A stretch of DNA of 64,000 bases from an uncultured delta proteobacterium (GCA_963812015.1 CAWETI010000003.1:704001-768000), one strand, 5' to 3'. Counted from the stretch's first letter, positions 9,046-51,324 are shown. Numbers and translations are program-made. Notes: a model not told the origin generated them from the letters alone.

Positions 9046-10215
9046 ATGGCGAAGAAAATATCTGTCAAGAAATATGCCGGGGTTTATTACACGGAATCTG
9101 TCGCGAAGAAGTGGCGGGAACGCGCCGACCGTATCTACTGGGTAGCCTTCAAGGACGCCAAGACCAATAAGCTGCGCTGGGAGCGGTGCGGCTGGGCCTC
9201 TGAGGGCTGGACTCCGGAAGCTGCACAAAGGCGCCGGCATGAACTTTTAGAGCAGGACAGAGCGGGAGACTATAAGCCCAAGCAGGAGCGCAAGTCCGAT
9301 CAACTGACTTTCGGGGAACTCATGGAAAAGCATTATCTCGCATGGGCAAAAGAACACAAGGGGCATTCCTTAGGTGATTTTTCTCGTTATACCCATTGGC
9401 TCAAGCCCCGGTTTGCCACCAAAGCCTTGAAGGATATTTCACCCCTGGATCTGGAACGCCTGAAAAGGGAAATGCGGGAGGCAGGGAAAAGCGAAGCCAC
9501 GGTAAGGCACGTGCTCTGCATAGTCCGTCAGGGTTTCAACAAGGCTGTGGTCTGGCGGTTGTGGTCAGGTGAGAACCCTTGTAAGGGAGTGTCGTTTCCC
9601 TCCCCCAATAATGCCCGGCAAAGGTTTTTGAGCCAGGAAGAAGCGGCCAAAGTTCTTGAATCTTTGCGGCGTCGTAGTGATCAAGTGGCCCGGATCGCTA
9701 CCTTGTCGCTTTATGGTGGCTTGCGCTTGGGGGAAGTTCTGGGACTCAGATGGTCCAACGTGGATCTCAAGAACGGGATCATATTCGTGCAAGACAGCAA
9801 AAACCGAGAATCCAGACCCATTTTCATCACCGAACCCATAAAGCAGGTTTTGGGTGAATTAACCCCTGGGGCCCCGGATGAACTCCTATTCAAGACCAAA
9901 GCCGGTAATCCCGTTCAACAGTTGAGCAAGTCTTTTGCTATCACGGTGAACGAACTCAAATTAAACGAAGGCGTCTCGGACCCCCGAGAGCGTGTCAGCT
10001 TTCACACCTTGCGGCACACCTATGCTTCTTGGGCAGTTATGGCTGGCGTACCCATCTACATCGTGGGGAAATCCATCGGCCACAAGACAATGGCCATGAC
10101 CCAGCGTTATGCTCACTTGGCCCCCGAGAGCCACAGGGCAGCTTTTGAGGCCGTAGCTCAAAGCGGCAAGGTGAACGGCAATAACCTCCAGGTGGTGAAC
10201 CTGGAGGATAAATAA
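9046..10215 (+). CDS. tyrosine recombinase / phage-type integrase
   Basis: GLRLGEVLGLRW, K (DSKN), FHTLRHTYAS, GHKT..MTQRY catalytic residues; GGAGG RBS before ATG 9046. Confidence 0.95.
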   Translation: MAKKISVKKYAGVYYTESVAKKWRERADRIYWVAFKDAKTNKLRWERCGWASEGWTPEAAQRRRHELLEQDRAGDYKPKQERKSDQLTFGELMEKHYLAWAKEHKGHSLGDFSRYTHWLKPRFATKALKDISPLDLERLKREMREAGKSEATVRHVLCIVRQGFNKAVVWRLWSGENPCKGVSFPSPNNARQRFLSQEEAAKVLESLRRRSDQVARIATLSLYGGLRLGEVLGLRWSNVDLKNGIIFVQDSKNRESRPIFITEPIKQVLGELTPGAPDELLFKTKAGNPVQQLSKSFAITVNELKLNEGVSDPRERVSFHTLRHTYASWAVMAGVPIYIVGKSIGHKTMAMTQRYAHLAPESHRAAFEAVAQSGKVNGNNLQVVNLEDK

Positions 10216-10296
10216 ACGGGCCGGCCCGAGTGCGGAGACACCCAGACCGGCCTTAACCACCCCACAAACCTATCAAGGAGATTCATGTCATGGCTG
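10210..10296 (-). ncRNA. putative SymR-like cis-antisense RNA (copy 1)
   Basis: Extended -10 TGGTAAACT on the minus strand at about 10303-10311. Covers the RBS/ATG of ORF 10290 and ends in a GGCCGG..CCGGCC hairpin plus T-rich tail. Homologous to copies at 34407 and 59813. Confidence 0.55.
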
Positions 10297-10601
10297 AAGA
10301 TCAGTTTACCACAGGCGCGGAAGTGAGTGAAGGGCAGACCTCACCTGCTGAGGCCAAAGAGGATGATAATTCGGAGAGCTTTTGGGGGGATGATTACACC
10401 GAAATTATCATGAGCCTAGACCAGATAAAAGCCCTCGGCGATGTGTTGACGACCGCAATTGGCGATGCCATGAGACACTATGAAGGTAAAGGCTATACCC
10501 CCTTTAATTTGGACGATAAAAGTTTGATAAGCATAGGCCATCTGATTCAGGAAAAAACCACCAGGATAAAGGCTCTGGTGGGAGAAGTAATGGTATTATA
10601 G
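10290..10601 (+). CDS. hypothetical protein (103 aa) downstream of the integrase
   Basis: AAGGAG RBS; followed by a hairpin at 10611-10641. Confidence 0.65.
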   Translation: MAEDQFTTGAEVSEGQTSPAEAKEDDNSESFWGDDYTEIIMSLDQIKALGDVLTTAIGDAMRHYEGKGYTPFNLDDKSLISIGHLIQEKTTRIKALVGEVMVL

Positions 10602-10610
10602 TTGTCGGCT

Positions 10611-10641
10611 ATGGGAGGGCGCCCCAGGCGTCCTCCCATTT
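10611..10641 (+). terminator. hairpin/terminator after ORF 10290
   Basis: ATGGGAGGGCGCC-cca-GGCGTCCTCCCAT followed by TT. Confidence 0.55.
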
Positions 10642-11335
10642 CAGTAAACTCAAAATTCAGGGAATAAGGGCCGGCTGATCCCCAGCCCCGACAAGGCGGA
10701 TTTCCTGGGCCGCCTTCCCCGAATAATTACCAGGATCATCACCAGGTTTCCCCTGCCAACTCAGGATTTGGCTTAAAAGAACCCGGAGCAGCAGCCCGGG
10801 CCAAGAGCAGCGACAATATCTCTTTCACAAAATAGGGCCAGGGTTTCTCCCTGGTCCTATCGTTTGTCCCTCGGTTACACGTTATCGAACACCGTCATGC
10901 TCCCCTGCCGGTCCCAAAACAGTTTTCTTCAATGAATCAGCCTTCATTTTTTCCTGCTTAGTAAGACGCCATTTTATTATTGGCTCCATCCAGTAATATT
11001 GTAGACGATCAGCACTAAAGCAGTTCAAAAGTGGGATAATTATTGAGGGAGAGAGTGATATTGGGGGAACAAATGGAATAAAAAAAGTTATTATCGAGAG
11101 TAATTCCGTCAGAAACCACTATATCTTCGCATGAGCATCCCACCTAATACGGCTCTTTTGGTAACTCATTAATTTAATTAAGAATAAAAAATTACTCTTT
11201 TTTCATTTTGGCCCTGGACATTGTTAAACAGGCGTGTATCATGGTAGTCAACATATTGATTCTATTGTCAGATTTGTCAAACAGATGTCGTGAAACGTTG
11301 ATGGTAACAGGGCTTTTGTTGTTTAGGGGGTAAAA

Positions 11336-11551
11336 ATGCGATCTATATTTATCGCTTTCCGTGTCACCAAAGTTGAGAAAAAAAATGTTGAAAGATTGGC
11401 GCGGCAGTTCGGGTGCGGATCATTGTCTGATTTCATTCGACTGGTCATACGGCTGGCCGATCCTAAGACCAATCAGGCCGCGGATCGGATGAACTATGCA
11501 CGGCATAAAAAAACCCCGGGGGATGAGGCCCGGGGGCAAGACCAAATATAA
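11336..11551 (+). CDS. small ribbon-helix-helix/MobC-like DNA-binding protein
   Basis: IAFRVTKVEK..LA...SLSDFIR pattern typical of RHH proteins. Confidence 0.55.
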   Translation: MRSIFIAFRVTKVEKKNVERLARQFGCGSLSDFIRLVIRLADPKTNQAADRMNYARHKKTPGDEARGQDQI

Positions 11552-11772
11552 TGAGGTTCACAATGATTACTCGGTTAGAGCTGGCAAAACGTTGGAAGTG
11601 CTCCGCCCGAAAGGTTGACCGGATGAGAAAAGAGGGGCTACTCCCATGGGTTGACCTATCCCAAGGCCGGGGGGCGCGGCCTTGTGTGCGGTTCCGATTG
11701 GTCGATATTGAAACCTTAGAAGCACGCATGGTCAAGGGGCCGGTCATGGAAGCCCGGCCAGAGGCTTTATGA
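11551..11772 (+). CDS. excisionase/AlpA-like helix-turn-helix protein
   Basis: ITRLELAKRWKCSARKVDRMRKEGLLP...VRFRLVDIE. Confidence 0.75.
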   Translation: MRFTMITRLELAKRWKCSARKVDRMRKEGLLPWVDLSQGRGARPCVRFRLVDIETLEARMVKGPVMEARPEAL

Positions 11773-11986
11773 AATCAAATGCCCCTGGTGGGCGGGGACC
11801 ATGCCAGGGGCGACGGGCGGTGAACTCTTGATCATGCGGAGATTCTACTATGGAAACCATATTCTATTTTGAACTAAAATTCAATGGATTAGTGTGGCCG
11901 TTCTTCCTGCAACTTCATATCCCTGCCCATTTAGCTCAGTTATCCCTTGCCCTGGATAGGGCTTCGGTTGATTTCGAGGGGGCGGG

Positions 11987-14539
11987 ATGAACCTTGAGCA
12001 GCTTCTAACCCCGAAAACCCTTGCGACCCCGCACGTTCAAGACTTGAAGAGATCCAAGATAAGTCGGGAGGCGGCCCAGGAAGCGGGGATTTCGACCGTT
12101 CCCCCTGACATGATTTCAAAGGTTTTGGGAATGTGTAATTACGGGTGGGCTGCCCCCAAGGTTGACTCAATGCTGGCCTTCCTTTACCGGCCCCTCAATG
12201 GCAGCGGAGATCATGATTATTTCCGGGTTAAGGTATATCCCCCGATTAAGACAAAGAAGGGAACCGCTAAATATTTACAACCTGAGGGGAGCGTTAATCA
12301 CGTTTACTGTCCGTCCGGTGTTGAGCCCCAGGGAAATGACACCCTTTATATTACGGAAGGGGAGAAAAAGGCGGTGTGTCTTACCTTGCAAGGCTTCCCT
12401 TGTATTGGATTAGGCGGGGTGAACGGCTACCGAACAAAAGATGCTGAAGGTAATTCACGGGTAATTCCTGATTTCGATTTAATCAACTGGCATAAGCGTG
12501 ATGTGGTGATAGTTTTCGATGCTGACATAGCCGTCAATGAGATGGTGGAACAAGCCGAAACCAAATTAGCAGAGGAACTACTCTCCCGTAAGGCCAGAGT
12601 ATTCATTAAGCGGCTACCTTATGGCCCGGGGTGCGCTAAAGGGGCGGATGACTATCTAGTTACCCATGGGGCGGAAGCATTTAAAAAACTCCCTGCTAAG
12701 ACGGTAAAGCCGAAAAGAAAAGTGCCGGCCCAGGCCCAGGGAACCGAGCCGGAACCGGCTGAATCCCCCCGAGTGGCTATGTGCGGCCACCTGTATTTCA
12801 TTGACCGGGGGCGGTTGTGCCTGGAAACGGTGGACCGGGAGGGCAAGCCAAAGCTTACCATCCTGGCCAATTTTCAGGCCCAGATAGAAGAGGAAGTGAC
12901 CCGAGACGACGGCTTGAGGCCTTCAAAAGAATTTCATATTGCCGGAAGCCTGGACACCGGGCGGCTTCTCCCCCGGGCCCGCATAATGGCAAAAGAATAT
13001 GATTCCCTCAACTGGATACCCCGAGAGTGGGGGGCGGCGGCGGCGGTTGCCCCCGGCCGGTCCCTTGGCGCCCACCTGGTGAATGCTATTCAAGCTCATT
13101 CCCAGGGGTTCAAGAGGCGCACCGTCTATGCTCACACCGGCTGGCAAAAAATAGGGCTCGTTTGGCGATACCTGCATGGTGGGGGAGCTATCGGCCAGGG
13201 CGATCCGGTAGAGGTTGACCTTGGGGAGAACCTGAGTAACTACAGCTTGCCCGAGCCCGGGGGGATTGAGGCGGCTCAGGCCAGTTTGAGATTTTTGGAT
13301 ATTGGCCCCTGGAAAATCACAGCCCCCTTGCTTGCCTGTGTTTACCTGGCCCCGTTTGCGGACCTGTGCAATGTAGATTTTTCTCTCTGGTTCCACGGTC
13401 CCACGGGGGGGCTAAAATCCACCCTGGCGGCCCTGGCCCTCTGTCACTTCGGGAACTTCTCTCGGACTACCTTACCCGGATCATGGTTTTCAACCGTCAA
13501 CAGCCTGGAAAAGCTCTGCTTTGTGCTGAAAGATAGCCTGCTGGTGATTGATGATTTCATGCCGGCGGCGAACTCAAAGGAATCGCACCGAATGGCGGAG
13601 AGTGCGGCTCGGCTGATTTACCAGGCCGGCAATCGTTCAGGCCGTGGGCGGCTGACGGCGGACCTGAGCGCCCGGCCCGATCATCGCCCCCGTTGCCTAA
13701 TTATCTCTACGGGGGAAATGCTGCTACCCGGCCAGAGACAGAGTGCCACGGCCCGTTACCTGGGGGTTGAGTTTGACCCGGAAAAGACCCCGATAGACAT
13801 GGCCCGGCTGACGGCGGCCCAAAGGGAGCAGGCCCTTTACCCTCAAGCGATGGCGGCCTATCTTGAGCCCCTGGCCCCCCACCTGGATGATACCTTGACC
13901 CAGATTCAGGAGCTCTGGGGAGACTTCCGGGGGGCCTTTCAAAGGACGGCCCATTTGCGGATACCCGAAATTCAGGCCTGGTTAGCTGTGGGGTTCGAGC
14001 TCTTCCTGAGATTTCAAACCATCATGGGGGCAATTACCCAGGACGTCGCGGTTGATCTGCATGACCGCGCCTGGCGAGTGTTTGAAGCCCTGGGGGAAAA
14101 GCATTCCCGGATAATCGAGGGGGAGCGGCCTACCCTGAAATTCTTGGCGATCTTGCGGGAACTCTTCTACCAGTCGCGGGTTTATGTGGAATCGGCTACC
14201 GTGGCGGGTGCACCCCCACAGGAACGAGGAGCCTTGGGGTGGGAAGGAACCGAACCCGCAAAACATGCTGAGCTTGTGGGGTGGGCAGGCGATGGGGTTC
14301 TTTATCTTATGCCGGAAATGACCCTCAAGGTGATACACGAAACGATCCGCCGGCAAGGGGATTTCTTATCCTTGGGGAAAAATGACCTCTTTGCAGCCCT
14401 GGCACGGGAGGGGTTCATTGAGCCGGCCAGGGGCGAAAACACGCAAATAAAGTGGATTCAGGGGGCTTCAAAACGGGTTATCTGTTTACCCCTGGTGAAG
14501 TTGGCCGATGATGAGGCTATGGAAAATGAGAGGACATAA
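11987..14539 (+). CDS. primase-helicase fusion (DUF3854/TOPRIM N-terminus, P-loop helicase C-terminus)
   Basis: KYLQP, YITEGEKKA, VFDAD, KGADDYL TOPRIM motifs; GPTGGLKSTL Walker A-like and LVIDDF Walker B. Confidence 0.85.
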   Translation: MNLEQLLTPKTLATPHVQDLKRSKISREAAQEAGISTVPPDMISKVLGMCNYGWAAPKVDSMLAFLYRPLNGSGDHDYFRVKVYPPIKTKKGTAKYLQPEGSVNHVYCPSGVEPQGNDTLYITEGEKKAVCLTLQGFPCIGLGGVNGYRTKDAEGNSRVIPDFDLINWHKRDVVIVFDADIAVNEMVEQAETKLAEELLSRKARVFIKRLPYGPGCAKGADDYLVTHGAEAFKKLPAKTVKPKRKVPAQAQGTEPEPAESPRVAMCGHLYFIDRGRLCLETVDREGKPKLTILANFQAQIEEEVTRDDGLRPSKEFHIAGSLDTGRLLPRARIMAKEYDSLNWIPREWGAAAAVAPGRSLGAHLVNAIQAHSQGFKRRTVYAHTGWQKIGLVWRYLHGGGAIGQGDPVEVDLGENLSNYSLPEPGGIEAAQASLRFLDIGPWKITAPLLACVYLAPFADLCNVDFSLWFHGPTGGLKSTLAALALCHFGNFSRTTLPGSWFSTVNSLEKLCFVLKDSLLVIDDFMPAANSKESHRMAESAARLIYQAGNRSGRGRLTADLSARPDHRPRCLIISTGEMLLPGQRQSATARYLGVEFDPEKTPIDMARLTAAQREQALYPQAMAAYLEPLAPHLDDTLTQIQELWGDFRGAFQRTAHLRIPEIQAWLAVGFELFLRFQTIMGAITQDVAVDLHDRAWRVFEALGEKHSRIIEGERPTLKFLAILRELFYQSRVYVESATVAGAPPQERGALGWEGTEPAKHAELVGWAGDGVLYLMPEMTLKVIHETIRRQGDFLSLGKNDLFAALAREGFIEPARGENTQIKWIQGASKRVICLPLVKLADDEAMENERT

Positions 14540-14549
14540 CCCTCCTGGT

Positions 14550-14835
14550 CTTACGGTCCTTACGGCATCCTTACGGCAATTTTTGGCAAACCGTAAGGGA
14601 GGAAATGCAGGCCAGTAAAGGGGTAGAGGGGTATCCTTACGGAAATTACGGTTTTATTCTCTATAAGACCCTCTTTGTATCTAGAGAGAGAGGGGTAGGC
14701 AGGGTGCAGGAATTATAACATGTAGCTCTACTGGAATAATGCCGTAAGAACCGTAAGGCGGCCTTTTGAGTTAATAACCGCGCGGGTTTCACCCTTACGG
14801 TTATACCGTAAGGATACCGTAAGGGAAGCGTAAGG
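14550..14835. repeat. iteron-like array (CTTACGG/CCGTAAG), putative replication origin of the element
   Basis: About 12 copies in both orientations (14550, 14559, 14570, 14591, 14636, 14647, 14742, 14751, 14794, 14806, 14817, 14829) immediately after the primase-helicase gene. Confidence 0.8.
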
Positions 14836-14838
14836 AAT

Positions 14839-16206
14839 ATGATCACCCTCAGAATTGACAGCCAAGTTCACTTTGGCCCCATGCCCGAGATCCCGGGAGC
14901 AATCCTGAACGAGATCAAGCGCCGACTGAGCTTCGAGAATCCGGCCTACCTGGAGGCTAAGAAGCGGGGTTTTTACACCGGGAATATTGCCCAACAGATT
15001 CGCGGCTATGAGATCGAAGGCGACCGGTTGATCATCCCCCGGGGTTTCACCCGGCAACTGGTGGAGATGCTTCACCGTGCGGGCGTCCAGTATCGCATCG
15101 AGGACCGACGGCGGACCCTGCCAGAGGAGGTCTTTCAATTCCTTGGTTTCCCCTACGACTTCCAGGCTGAGGCCGTGGAAGCCATGGCAGCGCGGGATTT
15201 CGGGACCCTGGCGGCGCCCACGGGCTCAGGTAAAACGGTGGTGGCCCTGGCTCTCGTGGCCATGCGGCGGCAACCGGCCCTGGTAGTGGTGCACACCCGG
15301 GAACTCATGGACCAATGGATTTCGAGGGTTGAAACCTTCCTGGGAATCCCGGCCCGAGAGGTGGGTATCATCGGCGGCGGCAAAATGAAGATGGGGGACA
15401 AGATCACCGTGGCCATGGTGCAGACCCTTTGCAAGTGCGCCCCCGAGGTTGCCCCTTTCATCGGAAATTTGATAGTTGACGAGGCCCACAGATGCCCCTC
15501 CCGGACCTTCACAGAGGCGGTGACGGCCTTTGATTCATGGTACATGACCGGCCTGAGTGCAACCCCTTGGCGGCGTGACGGCCTCTCCCGGCTGATTTAC
15601 TGGTATGTGGGGGATAAGGTCCATGAGATTGACAAGGCCGCCCTGGTGAAAGCTGGCCACGTCCTCCAGGCTGAGGTGGTCTGGAGAGAAACCGATTTCG
15701 AGCCCACCTTTGACCCCTCAGAGGAATATAGCCGGATGCTGTCAGAGCTTACCCAGGACCCGGCCAGAAATGACTTGATTGCCGCGGACGTGGCCCGGGA
15801 AGCCCAAGGCAACGGCGGCGGGGTATGTCTGGTGCTCAGTGACCGGAAAAGCCACGTCGAAACTCTGGCGGGGCTCCTGGAGGTTCGGGGGATAGAGGCG
15901 GCAATACTTACCGGGGATCTGAGCAACGGAGAACGTCAAGCGGTTGTGGCGGCCCTGAACGCCGGTAAGGTCAAGGTCCTGGTGGCCACAGGGCAGTTGA
16001 TCGGTGAGGGCTTCGATTGCCGGGACCTCAGCACCTTGTTTCTTGGCACGCCCATCCGATTCTCCGGTCGGCTCCTGCAATACCTGGGGCGGGTGCTCCG
16101 GCCGGCACCTGGGAAGAGTCGAGCGGTTGTGGTCGATTATCAGGATGTAAATGTGCCTGTTTTGATGAATGCGGCCAGGGGGCGCCAACGGGTTTATGGC
16201 GAATAA
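14839..16206 (+). CDS. SF2 DEAD/DEAH-box helicase (ResIII-like)
   Basis: APTGSGKT, IVDEAH, GLSATP, GEGFD, QYLGRVLR. Confidence 0.92.
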   Translation: MITLRIDSQVHFGPMPEIPGAILNEIKRRLSFENPAYLEAKKRGFYTGNIAQQIRGYEIEGDRLIIPRGFTRQLVEMLHRAGVQYRIEDRRRTLPEEVFQFLGFPYDFQAEAVEAMAARDFGTLAAPTGSGKTVVALALVAMRRQPALVVVHTRELMDQWISRVETFLGIPAREVGIIGGGKMKMGDKITVAMVQTLCKCAPEVAPFIGNLIVDEAHRCPSRTFTEAVTAFDSWYMTGLSATPWRRDGLSRLIYWYVGDKVHEIDKAALVKAGHVLQAEVVWRETDFEPTFDPSEEYSRMLSELTQDPARNDLIAADVAREAQGNGGGVCLVLSDRKSHVETLAGLLEVRGIEAAILTGDLSNGERQAVVAALNAGKVKVLVATGQLIGEGFDCRDLSTLFLGTPIRFSGRLLQYLGRVLRPAPGKSRAVVVDYQDVNVPVLMNAARGRQRVYGE

Positions 16207-18789: not shown

Positions 18790-19471
18790 AAGGCCTATCT
18801 AAGGGTGGGCCATGGCCATAATTCGGCCGGGGTCAAGTGACCCCACGGACGCGGTTGCGGGTCCCGGACCAGCCGGATTTTTGCTTCAAAATTTTTGGGC
18901 CGTTCCCATCATGGGGGGTGTCTGCTGTTCCTGCCCATGCGAACGAAAAAAGACTCGATCAGTTAGACCTATTTCACTATGCAAACCATATCCGCAACTC
19001 TTTGGAATTTTTGATAAGTCTTGATAGTGGCAAGATATCTGGCTATGACCTGCCTCTCTTCGATCAATTACTCTAAAATAACTTGTGGATTATTTTTTGG
19101 GGGGTAGGTTATTCAGAAGCAAAAATTAGGGATGTCCTAATATAAAATTAAGATTATTTTTGAAATAATTGCGCATAAATTTCTCATGGCCTAAGCTATG
19201 CTCCGCCAGGATCACTGGCTTGACTAAAAAAAGCCGAATTTTCTCACTCAAATTGGTCCAAAAAAAGGGGCAGTTCCAAAAAGGGAGCGGAATCTTGGGC
19301 ACGAGTATGAGATTAAACTGCTTAGATTCATTAATGAAATTTTTTTTCGCCTGAATGCGCCGATCGAAAGCATTTTTGGGGTTAAACCATCAAGGGCCGC
19401 ATATACCGACCTAACACGCCCCGGAGGATACGGTGGCGGGGTCGGCGGGGGTCGGCATGGGGAGGGTTTGA

Positions 19472-20706: not shown

Positions 20707-20773
20707 CTGCCATAATACCGGATTACTCACTTGTGGCCAACCCAAACTACTCGGGTACGATATGGCGATCATA
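20707..20773 (+). repeat. cassette-boundary repeat R1 (interrupted by an intron fragment)
   Basis: CTGCCATAAT..TTACTCAC, then CGATATGGCGATCATA identical to 26132-26147. Confidence 0.75.
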
Positions 20774-20882
20774 GTACGCCACGAACGCACGTAGAGTGCG
20801 GTGCCTTGCAGGAGATGAGGGTTAGGCCCCTTGGAACCGGTCTGCAGAGACAGGTTCAAACCGCCTTAAGCTGCACTGGTTT
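20774..20882 (+). mobile_element. 5' fragment of a group II intron related to the one at 36025-37872
   Basis: GTACGCCACGAACGCACG...GAGATGAGGG..GGTCTGCAG.GACAGGTT..AAACCGCCTTAAGCTGC aligns with the reverse complement of 37765-37872. Confidence 0.88.
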
Positions 20883-25890: not shown

Positions 25891-26060
25891 AGTCGTTCAA
25901 ATTTGAGGCTTGAGAGGGCACTTTACCAAGGGAATTTCAACTCTGGCGACGCCGGTAGAGGCATGTAATTTTCCGCCTTAAAGACGAACATGTTGCAGTT
26001 GAGCGATATGGCGGGACTCCTATGAAGCCCCCTTTGTTTCGAACCCTCGTCCTGTTCCTG

Positions 26061-26203
26061 AGCATGGCCTGCATCTAATGCCTTAAAGCGGGCCAGCCTT
26101 AAGTCCGGAACCCTGACCGTATCCCTTGTTGCGATATGGCGATCATATCTTCATCTCTCTGGAATTTTTGAGAAGCTTTGCTAGTGGCAAGTTATGTGGC
26201 ACC
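26061..26203 (+). repeat. cassette-boundary repeat R2 (intron-free twin of R3)
   Basis: Near-identical to 35951-36024 joined to 37873-37936; central CGATATGGCGATCATATCT at 26132-26150. Confidence 0.92.
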
Positions 26204-26372: not shown

Positions 26373-26942
26373 TTAATCCTCGCTATAATATGCTTTGCGC
26401 TTGCGCCAGAGGGTGGAGGGATCGATACCCAAAATATGGGCGGCCTCGTCAAGGGTTGAAGTGCGGGCCATGGTCCGAAGAATATGCTCCCGCTCGATCT
26501 GCTCCAAGGAATAATCCCCGCCCAGCGCCGGCACATCCGACAGGCGCGCCGCCAGGCTGTTGAGGAAGTCCCGGATTTGCTCCAGGGTGAACGGTTTGGG
26601 CAGATAATCCATCGCTCCTCGTTTGATGGCCTCTACCGCAGTCTCTATGGTGGCATAGGCGGTAATTATCACTATGTGGAGATGAGGGCTGATGGACAGG
26701 AGCTTGGGAATCAGGTCCAGGCCGCTCATTTCCTTCAGGCGCAGGTCCAGGAAGGCCAGATCAAAGGGCTGGTGCTCCAGGACAGCCAAGGCCTCGGAGG
26801 CCGAGGCTATTGCCGTGACCCGGCAGCCCATGGTCTCGAGGCAGGCTGATAAGGTAATTCGGAGGTTCTTCTCGTCATCAATTATCAGGACCCTAAAGGG
26901 ACCAACCTTGGATAGTTCAAGGGAAGCCACGCTATTCATATC
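26373..26942 (-). CDS. response regulator: receiver plus Fis-type HTH, no AAA+ domain
   Basis: LIIDDE, FLDLRL, ITAY, DYLPKPF, then SLEQIEREHI..AAHILGIDPSTLWRK. Confidence 0.85.
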   Translation of the reverse strand, partial: DMNSVASLELSKVGPFRVLIIDDEKNLRITLSACLETMGCRVTAIASASEALAVLEHQPFDLAFLDLRLKEMSGLDLIPKLLSISPHLHIVIITAYATIETAVEAIKRGAMDYLPKPFTLEQIRDFLNSLAARLSDVPALGGDYSLEQIEREHILRTMARTSTLDEAAHILGIDPSTLWRKRKAYYSED

Positions 26943-27092
26943 CCAACCCCTCCAGTCTTCCTGCACCGGGGCGCTCAATTCCGGCGCAGGAAGCTAAGGG
27001 CTTTTCAACTCCCATGGGATTCGTTGGAAAGCAAATACGGGTTAAGGCCATGGCACTTGACCCTGGATCAACCCTCTCATCCCGCCATAGGT

Positions 27093-35675: not shown

Positions 35676-36024
35676 GGTTCCAGTTTAATGGAAAAAGGGA
35701 CATAGCCCAACTGCATAGTGGAGGTTAATGGAGAGGTTCCGGTATGCATATTACCATTGCTAAATGGCCCTGAAACGCCCCCAGAAGGCTTGAAGAGCAC
35801 CAACCCTTACTTCTGGCCATTAGTCGGTTGGCTTGCGTTGAAATTTGGGCCGAAAAAAGGACCGTACGTTGCTGTTTTTGACCATCGCCGCCATCGACCT
35901 GAACGCTTCCTATGAGGCTTCCTTTGTTTAGAGCCACTACCCTGCTATTAAGCATGGCCTGCATCTAATGCCTTAAAGCGGGCCAGCCTTAAGTCTGGAA
36001 CCCTGACCGTATCCCTCGTTGCGA

Positions 36025-37872
36025 GTCGAGTAGCGCAGGGGAATCTCACCCCCACGCCCTCACAGATCCGGACGTGAACCTCTCAGCTCATCCGGCTCCT
36101 CTTATCCAGCCGCCGGCCGCACTCCCAGTCGCCAGTGAGCGAATAAATTCGACTCACGCCGGGCAATGCGTCCTAACCAATGGGTTGACTGACGCTGATG
36201 GCCACGCAGCTTCTTAAACTTACGCATGGCCCAACGGGTCAGAGCGCGATTCAGTTGGCGCAAAATCGGGTAAAGTGCAGACTTGTAGTAGCTGCCATAG
36301 TAGTTAATCTAGCCCCGAAGGACTGGATTGAACATCCGGGACAAGTCGTCGAGAGCCTTATCGCTCCTCAGGTGGAGTCGCCAACTACGCATGGTGCGGC
36401 GCATCGTCTTTGCGGCTTTATCGCTCACTGCCGGGCTGAAGCTGATGAAGAACTTGCCCCAGCGATTCTTCGATCTCCGGGGACGAAACGTGAATCCCAG
36501 AAAATCAAACTTCTCGTTGAGGTAGTGGCCTCTCCGATCATCATCCTTGCAATAGACTATCTTGGTCTTTTCAGGATGAAGCTCCAGTTTGCATTGAGCC
36601 AGCCTTCCGGCAATCGCCTTCCTCAATGCCCCAGCTTCCGATTCTGTCTGGCAGTGGACCACCACATCATCGGCATATCTCGCAAAAGGATTCTGTGGAT
36701 AAGTCTTCCGCATCCATTCATCAAAAGCATAGCGCAGGAACAGGTTGGCGAGCAGAGGGCTGATCACCCCGCCTTGCGGCGTGCCCTTCTGCCGGAGCAC
36801 TAAAGTCCCTTCAGCAAGTTGGGCTGGGGCGGTAAGCCACCTTTCGATGTAGAGCAGCATCCATGAACAGTCGGTGTGCTTACGCACCGCCCGCATGAGA
36901 AGGTCATGGTCCAGGTTGTCAAAGAATCCCTTGATATCCAAATCGATCACCCAGTCGTAGCGCCAGCACCTTTTCCGGGTTACTCCAACGGCTTCAATCG
37001 CCGACTTCCCATGTCGATATCCATAGGAGTCTGGATGAAAGCATGGCTCCACCAACGGTTCCAGGTAAATCTTGACTACCATCTGGGCAATCCGATCTAA
37101 TACCGTCGGGATTCCCAAACTTCTCTGGCCGCCACCGGCCTTGGGTATGGTTACCGTACGCACTGGTGGCGGGAAATAGCTCCCCGAGGACATGAGATTC
37201 CAGACCTTGTAAAGGTTGTTCTTCAACCCCTTCTCAAAATCTGCAATCGACTCCGTGTCTACTCCGGCCGCTCCCTGGTTTGCTTTTACCCTTTGAAACG
37301 CCTTCCAGACCACCCATTTTGAAATCTCAAACGGCTTTGCTTTATTCACCGGTTCCTCCCATTTCTGGTTGACCAAGCCATAAAGCTGAATGAGACAACC
37401 CCTTCACTCCATCCCCATTACGGGACTTCTTCGCTACTACGGGTTGTTCCGCCCCTGTGCCCCGCCTCGGTACTCTCACTCTCATGGGTCCTCCACTTGA
37501 GTTTCTCCCTTCACATCGGAGCGACAGGTTCCCACGTTCCACGCAAGAGCCTGAGTCAAGATCATGCCACCTTCATGCCGGACACCACCCAAGCAATAAG
37601 CAGGCTCCCCTTGGGCTTATACTGGGACCACCATACCCCCCAGTTTTGACGTCGTCCTTATGATTTCGACACGTCATCAGTGGTTCGCTTGCGCTCATCT
37701 TCTTGACCCATACCTGACGCAGTTGCTCTGCGCCTTTTCCTTAACGCTCACCACCCTGACTCTTAACCAGCGCAGCTTAAGGCGGTTTGGAACCTGTCCC
37801 TGCAGACCGATTCCGAGGGGCCTACCCTCATCTCTTGCGCAACACCGCACTCAGCGTGCGTTCGTGGCGCAC
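36025..37872 (-). mobile_element. group II intron (RmInt1-like, class D-type), 1848 nt, inserted in repeat R3
   Basis: 5' GTGCG at 37872 and 3' ..CTACTCGAC at 36025. Domain V GAGCCGGATGAGCTGAGAGGTTCACGTCCGGATC. Removing the intron restores the sequence of R2. Confidence 0.95.
36102..37376 (-). pseudogene. ltrA: group II intron RT/maturase with premature TAG (36309-36311) in domain X
   Basis: GAAGVD, LGIPTV.DR, GTPQGG, RYADD. LRG-TAG-INYYG replaces conserved RGWINYY; the frame continues to TAA at 36102-36104. No endonuclease domain. Confidence 0.88.
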
Positions 37873-38074
37873 TATGGCGATCATATCTTCATCTCTCTGG
37901 AATTTTTGAGAAGCTTTGCTAGTGGCAAGCTAGTGGCCTCTTCCTAAATACTTCTTAGAGAATGCCCTTTGGAAAAAATTATGTGCAAATTTACAGAGTA
38001 TATGGAGAATCTTAATCTTAAGAAAAGCTTTAAGAATAATTACCCTATATATTGAACTGTAAAGGAGAAACACC

Positions 38075-38670: not shown

Positions 38671-38783
38671 CTGCTATTTATGTGCCCATCAAGGAGACTT
38701 AGAAGGTTTTCGCTATACAGATCATATCTTCAACTATTAAGCATTTCGGAGAATGGGCTGATAGTGGCAAGTTATGCGGCACC
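38671..38783 (+). repeat. cassette-boundary repeat R4
   Basis: CTGCTAT.., GCTATACAGATCATATCTTCA, ..TAGTGGCAAGTTATGCGGCACC (right arm as in R2). Confidence 0.8.
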
Positions 38784-51256: not shown

Positions 51257-51324
51257 CAGATATGAAGATCATATCTGCAATTTCTCCGACGCATTCGATA
51301 ATTGCTGGTCCTGGCAAGTTATCA
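51257..51324 (+). repeat. cassette-boundary repeat R6 (perfect palindrome plus gamma arm)
   Basis: CAGATATG-aagat-CATATCTG, CAATTTCTCCGACGCATTCGATAATTGC..GGCAAGTTATC. Confidence 0.85.

Follow-up and report, generated by a model that had tools for sequence, protein, structure and literature searches.

How does a mobile intron whose protein has no match to an endonuclease domain choose its address in a bacterial genome? The question is raised by a group II intron of an uncultured delta proteobacterium, located in a stretch of 64,000 nucleotides (GCA_963812015.1 CAWETI010000003.1:704001-768000; here called the window, with positions counted from its first letter). An earlier sequence-only reading of this stretch proposed that the intron targets the palindrome of a repeated cassette site and has hit it in both orientations, in parallel with the group IIC introns that parasitise the attC sites of integrons. 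The evidence set out below makes it highly probable that a class D intron retrohomed into one copy of a dispersed intergenic repeat, and suggests that the intron RNA selects this site by base pairing.

An exact insertion into a repeated site

The intron is complete and lies on the minus strand (Table 1). Two Rfam families recognise it: RF01999, a segment of domain I (112.7 bits, 37712-37829, minus), and RF00029, which covers domains V-VI (56.2 bits against a gathering score of 40, 36025-36100, minus). Group II introns are expected to have a 5′ GUGYG, a catalytic stem in domain V, a bulged A in domain VI, and a 3′ AY; in agreement with this, the intron starts with GUGCG and ends with ...CUACUCGAC, and its RF00029 match spans both 3′ domains. 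On the minus strand, the 5′ junction reads ...GAAGATATGATCGCCATA↓GTGCGCC (at greater length, GAAGATATGATCGCCATA↓GTGCGCCACGAACGC; arrows mark junctions throughout) and the 3′ junction reads ...CTACTCGAC↓TCGCAACG (at greater length, GCGCTACTCGAC↓TCGCAACGAGGG). When RF00029 was searched genome-wide, with 150 of 196 candidates scored, only this intron was returned; blastn and nhmmer then gave nine more 3′ remnants. Related intron sequences are also present in contigs of two RNA libraries, which may include DNA.

The target is defined by a second copy of the flanks that holds no intron. A repeat search in the window matched 35908-36024 to 26018-26134 (86% identity) and 37873-37932 to 26135-26194 (98% identity). 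Since the intron flanks are contiguous in this twin, the insertion is exact, with no base gained or lost, and the twin is a true empty site. Thus, the Rfam matches and junctions support the full minus-strand intron that the sequence-only reading had placed in its site R3, and the contiguity of the flanks at 26018-26194 supports its use of the uninterrupted twin as the empty target. The base that follows the insertion point, at +1, is T, as it is in 11 of the 14 related 3′ junctions listed, the other three having G.

The same reading had noticed a related 5′ intron end on the plus strand, in a site called R1, and its 87% identity to the first 108 nt of the intron agrees with this. The fragment stands directly after ...CGATATGGCGATCATA↓ on the plus strand. 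R1 and the twin share a 16-nt identity, of which about 3e-5 would be expected in 64 kb (hand arithmetic).

These sites belong to a larger family. Iterated nhmmer found 76 copies of a core repeat of about 63 nt, with the consensus (G)ATATGCAGATCATATCTGCAACTTTT...GATAAGTG...TTTGGCAAGNTA, on two large contigs of the genome. The first 17 nt, at the 5′ end of the repeat, form a near-palindrome, GATATG-N5-CATATC, and this is where the window intron sits. According to a crude open reading frame (ORF) map, 72 of the 76 cores are intergenic, and their orientation is only weakly biased towards that of adjacent genes.

Pairing between the intron and its 5′ exon

The consensus fold of 16 homologues places both exon-binding sites, EBS1 and EBS2, in terminal loops of conserved hairpins, and stem pair 45-59 of the EBS1 hairpin is altered on both sides in seven sequences. 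The loop UAUGGUG, which had been named as EBS1 from the window alone, is confirmed as such by this fold and by its covariation with the intron-binding site (IBS1) of the exon. It forms 7/7 pairs, one of them G-U, with CGCCAUA (-7 to -1) and 6/7 with GAUCAUA, so that a single EBS1 does fit both strands, as claimed; the positions and pairing counts reported with that claim were all correct. EBS2 pairs with UAUGA at -13 to -9, and position -8 is left unpaired. The spacing is the same as in RmInt1, for which PMC4075523 gives IBS1 at -1 to -7, IBS2 at -9 to -13, and IBS3 at +1. By chance, 12/12 allowed pairs of EBS2 and EBS1 at fixed positions would arise with a frequency of about (6/16)^12 = 8e-6 (hand arithmetic).

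Further evidence comes from the 24 distinct copies whose exon and loops are both known. Here, introns combined with mismatched exons served as the control. The mean for EBS1-IBS1 is 6.25/7 pairs versus 4.09 in the mismatched combinations, with 7/7 in 15 of the 24 copies, and the mean for EBS2-IBS2 is 3.83/5 versus 2.61. For instance, compensatory combinations of EBS1 and exon include UAGCUUG with CAAGCUA, UAUCUUG with CAAGAUA, and UAGAUAG with CUAUCUA. In effect, both EBS1-IBS1 and EBS2-IBS2 vary with the exon, as in IIB-type recognition. The earlier reading of the loop as EBS1 stands, but recognition draws on EBS2 as well, which differs with the strand.

For the version of the palindrome found in the window, GGCGATC, the exon-binding sites of the window intron pair at 12/12 positions with the bottom strand and 11/12 with the top. 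Five of the 76 cores score 12/12 on the bottom strand with these sites, and the top strand of the same palindromes scores 11/12; four of the five are empty.

Relatives on the same repeat

Homologues were gathered from 60 related genomes, from extra regions of them, and by pattern scans of genome and metagenome collections. In the genome collection, 80 loci taken from the 100 stretches that match an 18-nt pattern included five intron ends (L060, L076, L105, L119; L076 is the G010 contig); the remaining loci were rejected as coding sequence of unrelated bacteria. In metagenomes, a 26-nt pattern was specific, with 20/20 matches being introns.

The relatives that share the 5′ end of the window intron, here subfamily A, comprise 22 distinct copies. 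Half of these (11/22) end at core position 15 on the top strand (...GCTATCCAGATCATA↓), including the fragment at 20774 and a 97%-identical copy in G010, in which nt 138-319 were not found. In another four, namely the window intron, L157, L165, and L170, the bottom-strand junction is at core position 3, and the core is matched over its full length (E at most 2e-8). Three further copies appear to be placed likewise, on weak matches, so the bottom-strand group numbers four to seven. Thus, the relatives have hit the palindrome in both orientations, as the sequence-only reading had it. In addition, two 3′ exons in G010 hold the rest of the core, as expected of top-strand insertion. EBS1 is UAUGGUU or UAUGGUG in both strand groups. 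Among copies with a known EBS2, by contrast, this site goes with the strand: it is UCAUA in three bottom-strand copies and GAAUA or GCAUA in six distinct top-strand copies.

The remaining four of the 22 are not on the palindrome; two lie in YADD codons of reverse transcriptase genes of other introns and two elsewhere. At L105 and L162, close relatives with the 5′ end of the window intron stand directly after the YADD codons of such genes, forming twintrons. Subfamily A thus includes members with the known YADD-homing habit.

A sister group, subfamily B, has a longer first stem. In this group, which accounts for most relatives in sister genomes at a different place, 11 of the 16 copies end at core positions 60-62 (...TGGCAAGMTA↓), at the 3′ end of the repeat, and two others at ...CTGCTATCTA↓. 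The 5′ exons of homologues thus agree with the earlier proposal for subfamily A, which is mostly on the palindrome, but not for most of subfamily B, which lies at the other end of the same repeat.

Many subfamily B copies are mini-introns of about 610 nt that lack an ORF. In L013-L018 and L038 (G025, G005, G028, G007, G049, G013), domains I-III are joined to domains V-VI, the protein gene being deleted, and most of these stand at the 3′ junction of the core. Such mini-introns presumably depend on a protein supplied in trans. The nine 3′ remnants, which hold the end of the protein gene and domains V-VI (about 60-130 nt), are in G000 at C2:1101032-1101093, C2:792096-792157, C2:783316-783354, C3:1009649-1009703, C3:825089-825150, C3:804547-804605, C3:512963-513023, C3:1837352-1837410, and C4:12137-12169. 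Four of them lie directly after a full core at ...GGCAAGNTA and two after a partial core end. They look homologous over their entire extent, as if a subfamily B stub had been copied with the repeat.

In sequencing runs other than the probable source, related introns are represented in part only; 35850-35997 and 37996-38050, in the flanks, are absent from these runs, and 37922-37995 is nearly bare. The runs are uninformative on the window locus, on splicing, and on habitat.

Table 1. Coordinates of the intron, its recognition elements, and the copies of the core repeat in the window
Feature	Position	Strand	Details
Complete group II intron, 1848 nt	36025..37872	minus	5′ GUGCG to 3′ ...CUCGAC; RF01999 and RF00029; flanks as in the empty twin
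EBS1, UAUGGUG	37629..37635	minus	Loop of the CUGGGG/UCCCAG hairpin; consensus fold of 16 homologues
EBS2, UCAUA	37659..37663	minus	Loop GAAAUCAUAAG of the adjoining hairpin; consensus fold of 16 homologues; 5/5 pairs with IBS2
5′ exon target	37873..37885	minus	IBS2 UAUGA 37881-37885, linker U 37880, IBS1 CGCCAUA 37873-37879
First base of the 3′ exon, T, presumed IBS3	36024	minus	Sequence
ORF of the intron-encoded protein, 424 codons	36103..37376	minus	Reverse transcriptase, maturase, short C-terminal tail; one stop inside
In-frame TAG	36309..36311	minus	Trp of the maturase motif RGWxxYYG in relatives; aligned to RGWIAYYG
Occupied core (R3)	37871..37933	plus	nhmmer E 1.3e-12; cut by the intron between core positions 2 and 3
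Empty twin	26018..26200	plus	Core repeat 26133-26195; palindrome GATATGGCGATCATATC at 26133-26149
Empty core	18976..19038	plus	nhmmer E 1.2e-14
Empty core	38712..38774	plus	nhmmer E 4.9e-11
Empty core	51259..51321	plus	nhmmer E 9.1e-13
Further core	starts 52455		nhmmer E 5.4e-9
Further core	starts 53225		nhmmer E 2.3e-8
First 15 nt of the core repeat (R1), GATATGGCGATCATA	20759..20773	plus	5′ exon of the fragment at 20774; positions 1-15 of the core hidden Markov model
5′ fragment of a related intron, 108 nt	20774..20881	plus	Starts GUACG; remainder deleted; 87% identity to intron nt 1-108

Alternative explanations of the association

The sequence-only reading took the repeats for integron-like cassette recombination sites, which would make the intron a functional counterpart of the IIC-attC introns. 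Part of this proposal stands, as the target is indeed the palindrome of a repeated site. There are also observations that favor the other part: the cores occur in co-oriented clusters with a spacing of 0.7-12 kb; their 3′ end, GGCAAG↓, is the homology break of a duplicated 3.8-kb block with a tyrosine recombinase gene; several different elements are attached at this same point; and non-IIC introns are reported in integrons in the portion of PMC7923331 that treats them. Nevertheless, the best match to the integron integrase model TIGR02249 in the genome scores 122.2 bits against a cut-off of 265. Similarly, no attC-like long imperfect hairpin was seen in the core folds, which were single-strand folds made without an attC covariance model. 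When three cores were folded as single-stranded DNA, one of them on both strands, the z values against shuffles were -0.86, 0.01, 0.67, and -2.80; three of the four folds are thus no better than shuffles, and nothing recurs beyond the short stem of the palindrome (4-8 bp), which is of 6 bp in the twin core, whichever strand is folded. No compensatory change is seen in the palindrome, the genes around the window cores are ordinary (kdpABC, katG, and photolyase among them), and the intron itself uses EBS2 and encodes a class D-like protein. With no integrase over the cut-off, no long hairpin, and ordinary genes between the repeats, the label of cassette site in the integron sense is rejected as not shown by these sequences, and an integron-like origin of the association is considered unlikely.

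A second alternative is that the palindrome is recognised as a DNA hairpin, as terminator or attC stems are by IIC introns, with base pairing in a minor role. The palindrome arms are conserved as sequence, with columns 2-14, 3-13, and 4-12 pairing in at least 90% of the 76 copies, and folding predicts a 6-bp stem, GATATG/CATATC, for either strand of the twin core, with stems of 4 and 8 bp at this place in the other two cores. Moreover, a protein without an endonuclease domain probably acts on single-stranded DNA, to judge from what PMC5894124 says of RmInt1. By contrast, the insertion point is inside the stem and not after it, 12 of 13 consecutive bases of the 5′ exon are paired, in the spacing of IIB-type introns, and the sister subfamily targets a non-palindromic part of the repeat by the same rules. 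The variable palindrome positions also lack covariation: hairpin covariation was dropped as a candidate because these positions change without compensation, and only one of 12 pairs gave an observed value that was reached in fewer than 50 of 1000 shuffles. Recognition of a hairpin is therefore regarded as very improbable.

The least credible account is that there is no targeting at all, and that the repeat, or a larger block with the intron in it, was copied by recombination or by the mobility of the repeat itself, so that the association is simply inherited. In its favor, the similarity of R3 to the twin extends past the core over about 180 nt. Of the nine 3′ remnants, four (about 110-130 nt) directly follow a full core and two a partial core end, and some may have been copied with the core; four top-strand copies have long flanks in common. 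Against this account, the core variants that hold the bottom-strand copies (window, L157, L165, L170) are clearly distinct, as are the flanks, and the twin is empty at the exact splice junction. Moreover, EBS1 and EBS2 both vary so as to fit the exon, for which selection for pairing is the only explanation; the 24-copy test contradicts the expectation that EBS-IBS matches are no better than shuffled pairings.

Elements and genes beside the repeat

Other elements meet the repeat at its 3′ end. A 3.8-kb block with a gene for a 213-amino acid tyrosine recombinase is duplicated in inverted orientation at 94% identity in G000 (C3:996792-1000613 and C3:453858-457666), and the homology stops exactly at the GGCAAG↓ of a core, which would fit a recombination site or the end of an element. 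A separate element of about 110 nt (TAGAAACTTTTGTATCC...GGGGGCAGGTCA) is joined at the GGCAAG junction after cores in G000 at C2:446907, C2:788772, C3:794903, C3:1000616, and C3:1477041; this is the same point where subfamily B introns insert. At C2:788880, the element is followed by a C-terminal fragment of a tyrosine recombinase gene. A regular recombinase partner for the cores was considered and rejected, as the tyrosine recombinases near them belong to several unrelated small families.

Of the 40 cores on contig C3, 31 have an orientation that agrees with the sign of the GC skew, and the minus strand carries all 10 that lie beyond the skew maximum (about 1.42 Mb). Either gene orientation or replication-linked insertion could account for this.

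Upstream of the repeat-rich part of the window, 9625-16206 has the look of an integrated mobile element: a tyrosine integrase match (9625-10125) is grouped there with a DUF3854/DUF927 primase-like protein (11987-14539) and a ResIII/DEAD helicase (14839-16206). Beside kdpABC, at 26373-26978 on the minus strand, there is a response regulator with a receiver and a Fis-type helix-turn-helix and no sigma-54 ATPase module between them.

The intron-encoded protein

The intron-encoded protein matches the Pfam families RVT_1 (1.5e-40) and GIIM (1.7e-17) and no other, and so has no endonuclease domain match. It is 56% identical over 404 amino acids to the intron protein of Sinorhizobium medicae WSM419 plasmid pSMED01, in an alignment that reaches residue 416 of 424 and includes the C-terminal tail (LFAHWR versus LFVHWQ). 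Identity to most other plasmid-borne intron proteins is about 32-35%. The S. medicae locus, L177, also matches the same domain I family, RF01999, at 115.1 bits versus 112.7 in the window intron. In the passages of PMC4615759 and PMC5894124 on class D (IIB3), this class includes RmInt1, RmInt2, and the WSM419 intron Sr.md.I1, and its proteins are described as lacking an endonuclease domain; L177 may be Sr.md.I1 itself. The window intron thus has a reverse transcriptase, a maturase, and a conserved tail with no endonuclease domain, together with a class-type domain I. The earlier description of it as RmInt1-like (class D, IIB-type) is well supported by RVT_1 and GIIM as the only families, by the S. 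medicae protein, and by RF01999, although not formally proven by a tree.

The reading frame of the window copy is interrupted by an in-frame TAG. In related-intron contigs (3-10% divergent) from environmental runs X2, X3, and X16, position 36310 has C instead of T, which gives TGG. Consequently, the TAG is either private to the window copy or an assembly error. A second class D protein was not found in the genome, where tblastn gave only one other reverse transcriptase, at 32% identity. The window copy is probably stranded, since its maturase motif is broken by a stop codon and no helper protein of its class was found in the genome.

A proposed mechanism and its limits

In the mechanism proposed for retrohoming into the repeat, the intron RNA would select its site by pairing EBS2 and EBS1 with 12 bases of the 5′ exon, UAUGA-u-CGCCAUA, the 3′ exon beginning with U. 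Since ...CAUA↓UC is present on both strands of the palindrome, the same EBS1 fits either of them. The EBS2 variant goes with the strand, UCAUA for the bottom and GAAUA or GCAUA for the top; for the GGCGATC version of the palindrome, a single intron RNA fits both. The sister subfamily is specialised on the opposite end of the repeat (UGGCAAGMUA↓). To judge from RmInt1 and RmInt2, as discussed in parts of PMC5894124 and PMC4615759, a target on both strands would always give one copy on the lagging-strand template.

Several observations weigh against this reading of the locus or restrict it. On the top strand, the core model is matched over 15 nt only (E 0.1-5.6), and the placement of these copies depends on their common register and on the upstream repeat arm. 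About 60 nt of upstream flank are common to four of them (L039, L159, L164, and L176), which may go back to a single inherited insertion, in which case independent top-strand events may number about eight. The tree of subfamily A is star-like, so that one strand switch cannot be told from several. In 9 of the 24 copies, EBS2 pairing is imperfect (1-3/5), although RmInt2 also tolerates EBS2 mismatch according to the relevant part of PMC4615759, and the EBS3 base of the window intron was not located. The stop codon, seen in one genome only, may be an assembly error. Finally, GC skew makes the plus strand the leading strand in the window, which puts the window intron in the orientation less used by RmInt1 (leading-strand template), and the intron pieces on contig C3 show no clear bias, with four in the lagging-strand orientation and three in the opposite one (hand count). 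By the same skew, the fragment at 20774 is in the favored orientation. Strand bias is neither supported nor refuted by these data.

A broader and rather doubtful possibility is long-term coevolution of the intron lineage with the repeat family, sister introns sharing the repeat among at least three homing positions. If so, these positions would be both strands of the 5′ palindrome and the 3′ junction GGCAAGNUA↓, where recombination breaks and another small element also fall. One ribonucleoprotein could then invade whichever strand of the palindrome is the lagging-strand template, and the repeat would have taken up the decayed tails of introns (domains V-VI), which were then copied with it. If insertion at the junction blocks recombination of the repeat, the introns could restrain the element, a role proposed for RmInt1 in relation to ISRm2011-2.

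Comparison with known systems

The nearest known case is RmInt2 of S. meliloti GR4, which the relevant part of PMC4615759 describes as a class D intron in both terminal inverted repeats of ISRm17. The parallel with IIC-attC introns drawn by the sequence-only reading is a loose one only, and RmInt2 is the closer precedent. As far as RmInt2 is described in PMC4615759 and PMC5894124, both introns are of class D without an endonuclease domain, and both have as target a repeated sequence in inverted form, with one site per replication strand. The tolerance of EBS2 mismatch is likewise common to RmInt2 (in the same part of PMC4615759) and the window intron family, as is U at the first base of the 3′ exon, the matching EBS3 A being an expectation in the window intron. 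Nevertheless, there are differences from what is reported there. In contrast to the two ends of an insertion sequence, the sites of the window intron overlap in a single 17-nt palindrome; the host repeat, unlike ISRm17, is short, intergenic, and only putatively mobile; EBS2 differs between top-strand and bottom-strand copies; and sister lineages share one repeat at three positions. In addition, the window intron is known from its sequence alone.

RmInt1 and Sr.md.I1, also of class D, sit in ISRm2011-2 and related insertion sequences, according to PMC4075523 and PMC5894124. They resemble the window intron in IBS spacing, homing into a multicopy element, and decay into fragments, and the S. medicae locus shares its domain I family. 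By contrast, the window intron is in a different host phylum and has a different target.

In Thermosynechococcus elongatus, one intron lineage has reportedly multiplied in the genome, with divergence of target specificity and with ORF-less derivatives. Those introns are said to be of a different class and to have spread to unrelated sites, whereas the diverged lineages described here stay on one repeat family.

IIC-attC introns of integrons, as presented in the relevant portion of PMC3001079, resemble the window intron in exploiting a repeated recombination-type site between genes; IIB introns in integrons or in clusters of attC sites lacking integron-integrases (CALINs) also appear in the corresponding portion of PMC7923331. 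In the account of PMC4075523, IIC introns are without a recognisable EBS2-IBS2 pairing. In contrast to the absence of EBS2, the short IBS1, and the insertion beside an attC stem-loop that mark IIC-attC introns, the window intron has an EBS2 that covaries and is inserted inside the 6-bp arm of its target, and the repeat, unlike the integron setting, fails the integrase and hairpin tests.

A literature search returned no intron family specialised on repeats like repetitive extragenic palindromes (REPs) or miniature inverted-repeat transposable elements (MITEs); in the part of PMC1525189 that tabulates introns of Pseudomonas putida, two of nine stand beside REPs.

Set beside these systems, the locus reveals no new mechanism and is a tidy new example of a known strategy. 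What it offers is an unusually clear natural record of an endonuclease-less group II intron changing address, in which small changes of EBS1 and EBS2 would move sister lineages among three positions of a repeat and between the strands of its palindrome. It thus extends the idea developed for RmInt2, that a two-strand target secures a lagging-strand template, to an uncultured sediment lineage and a short intergenic repeat.

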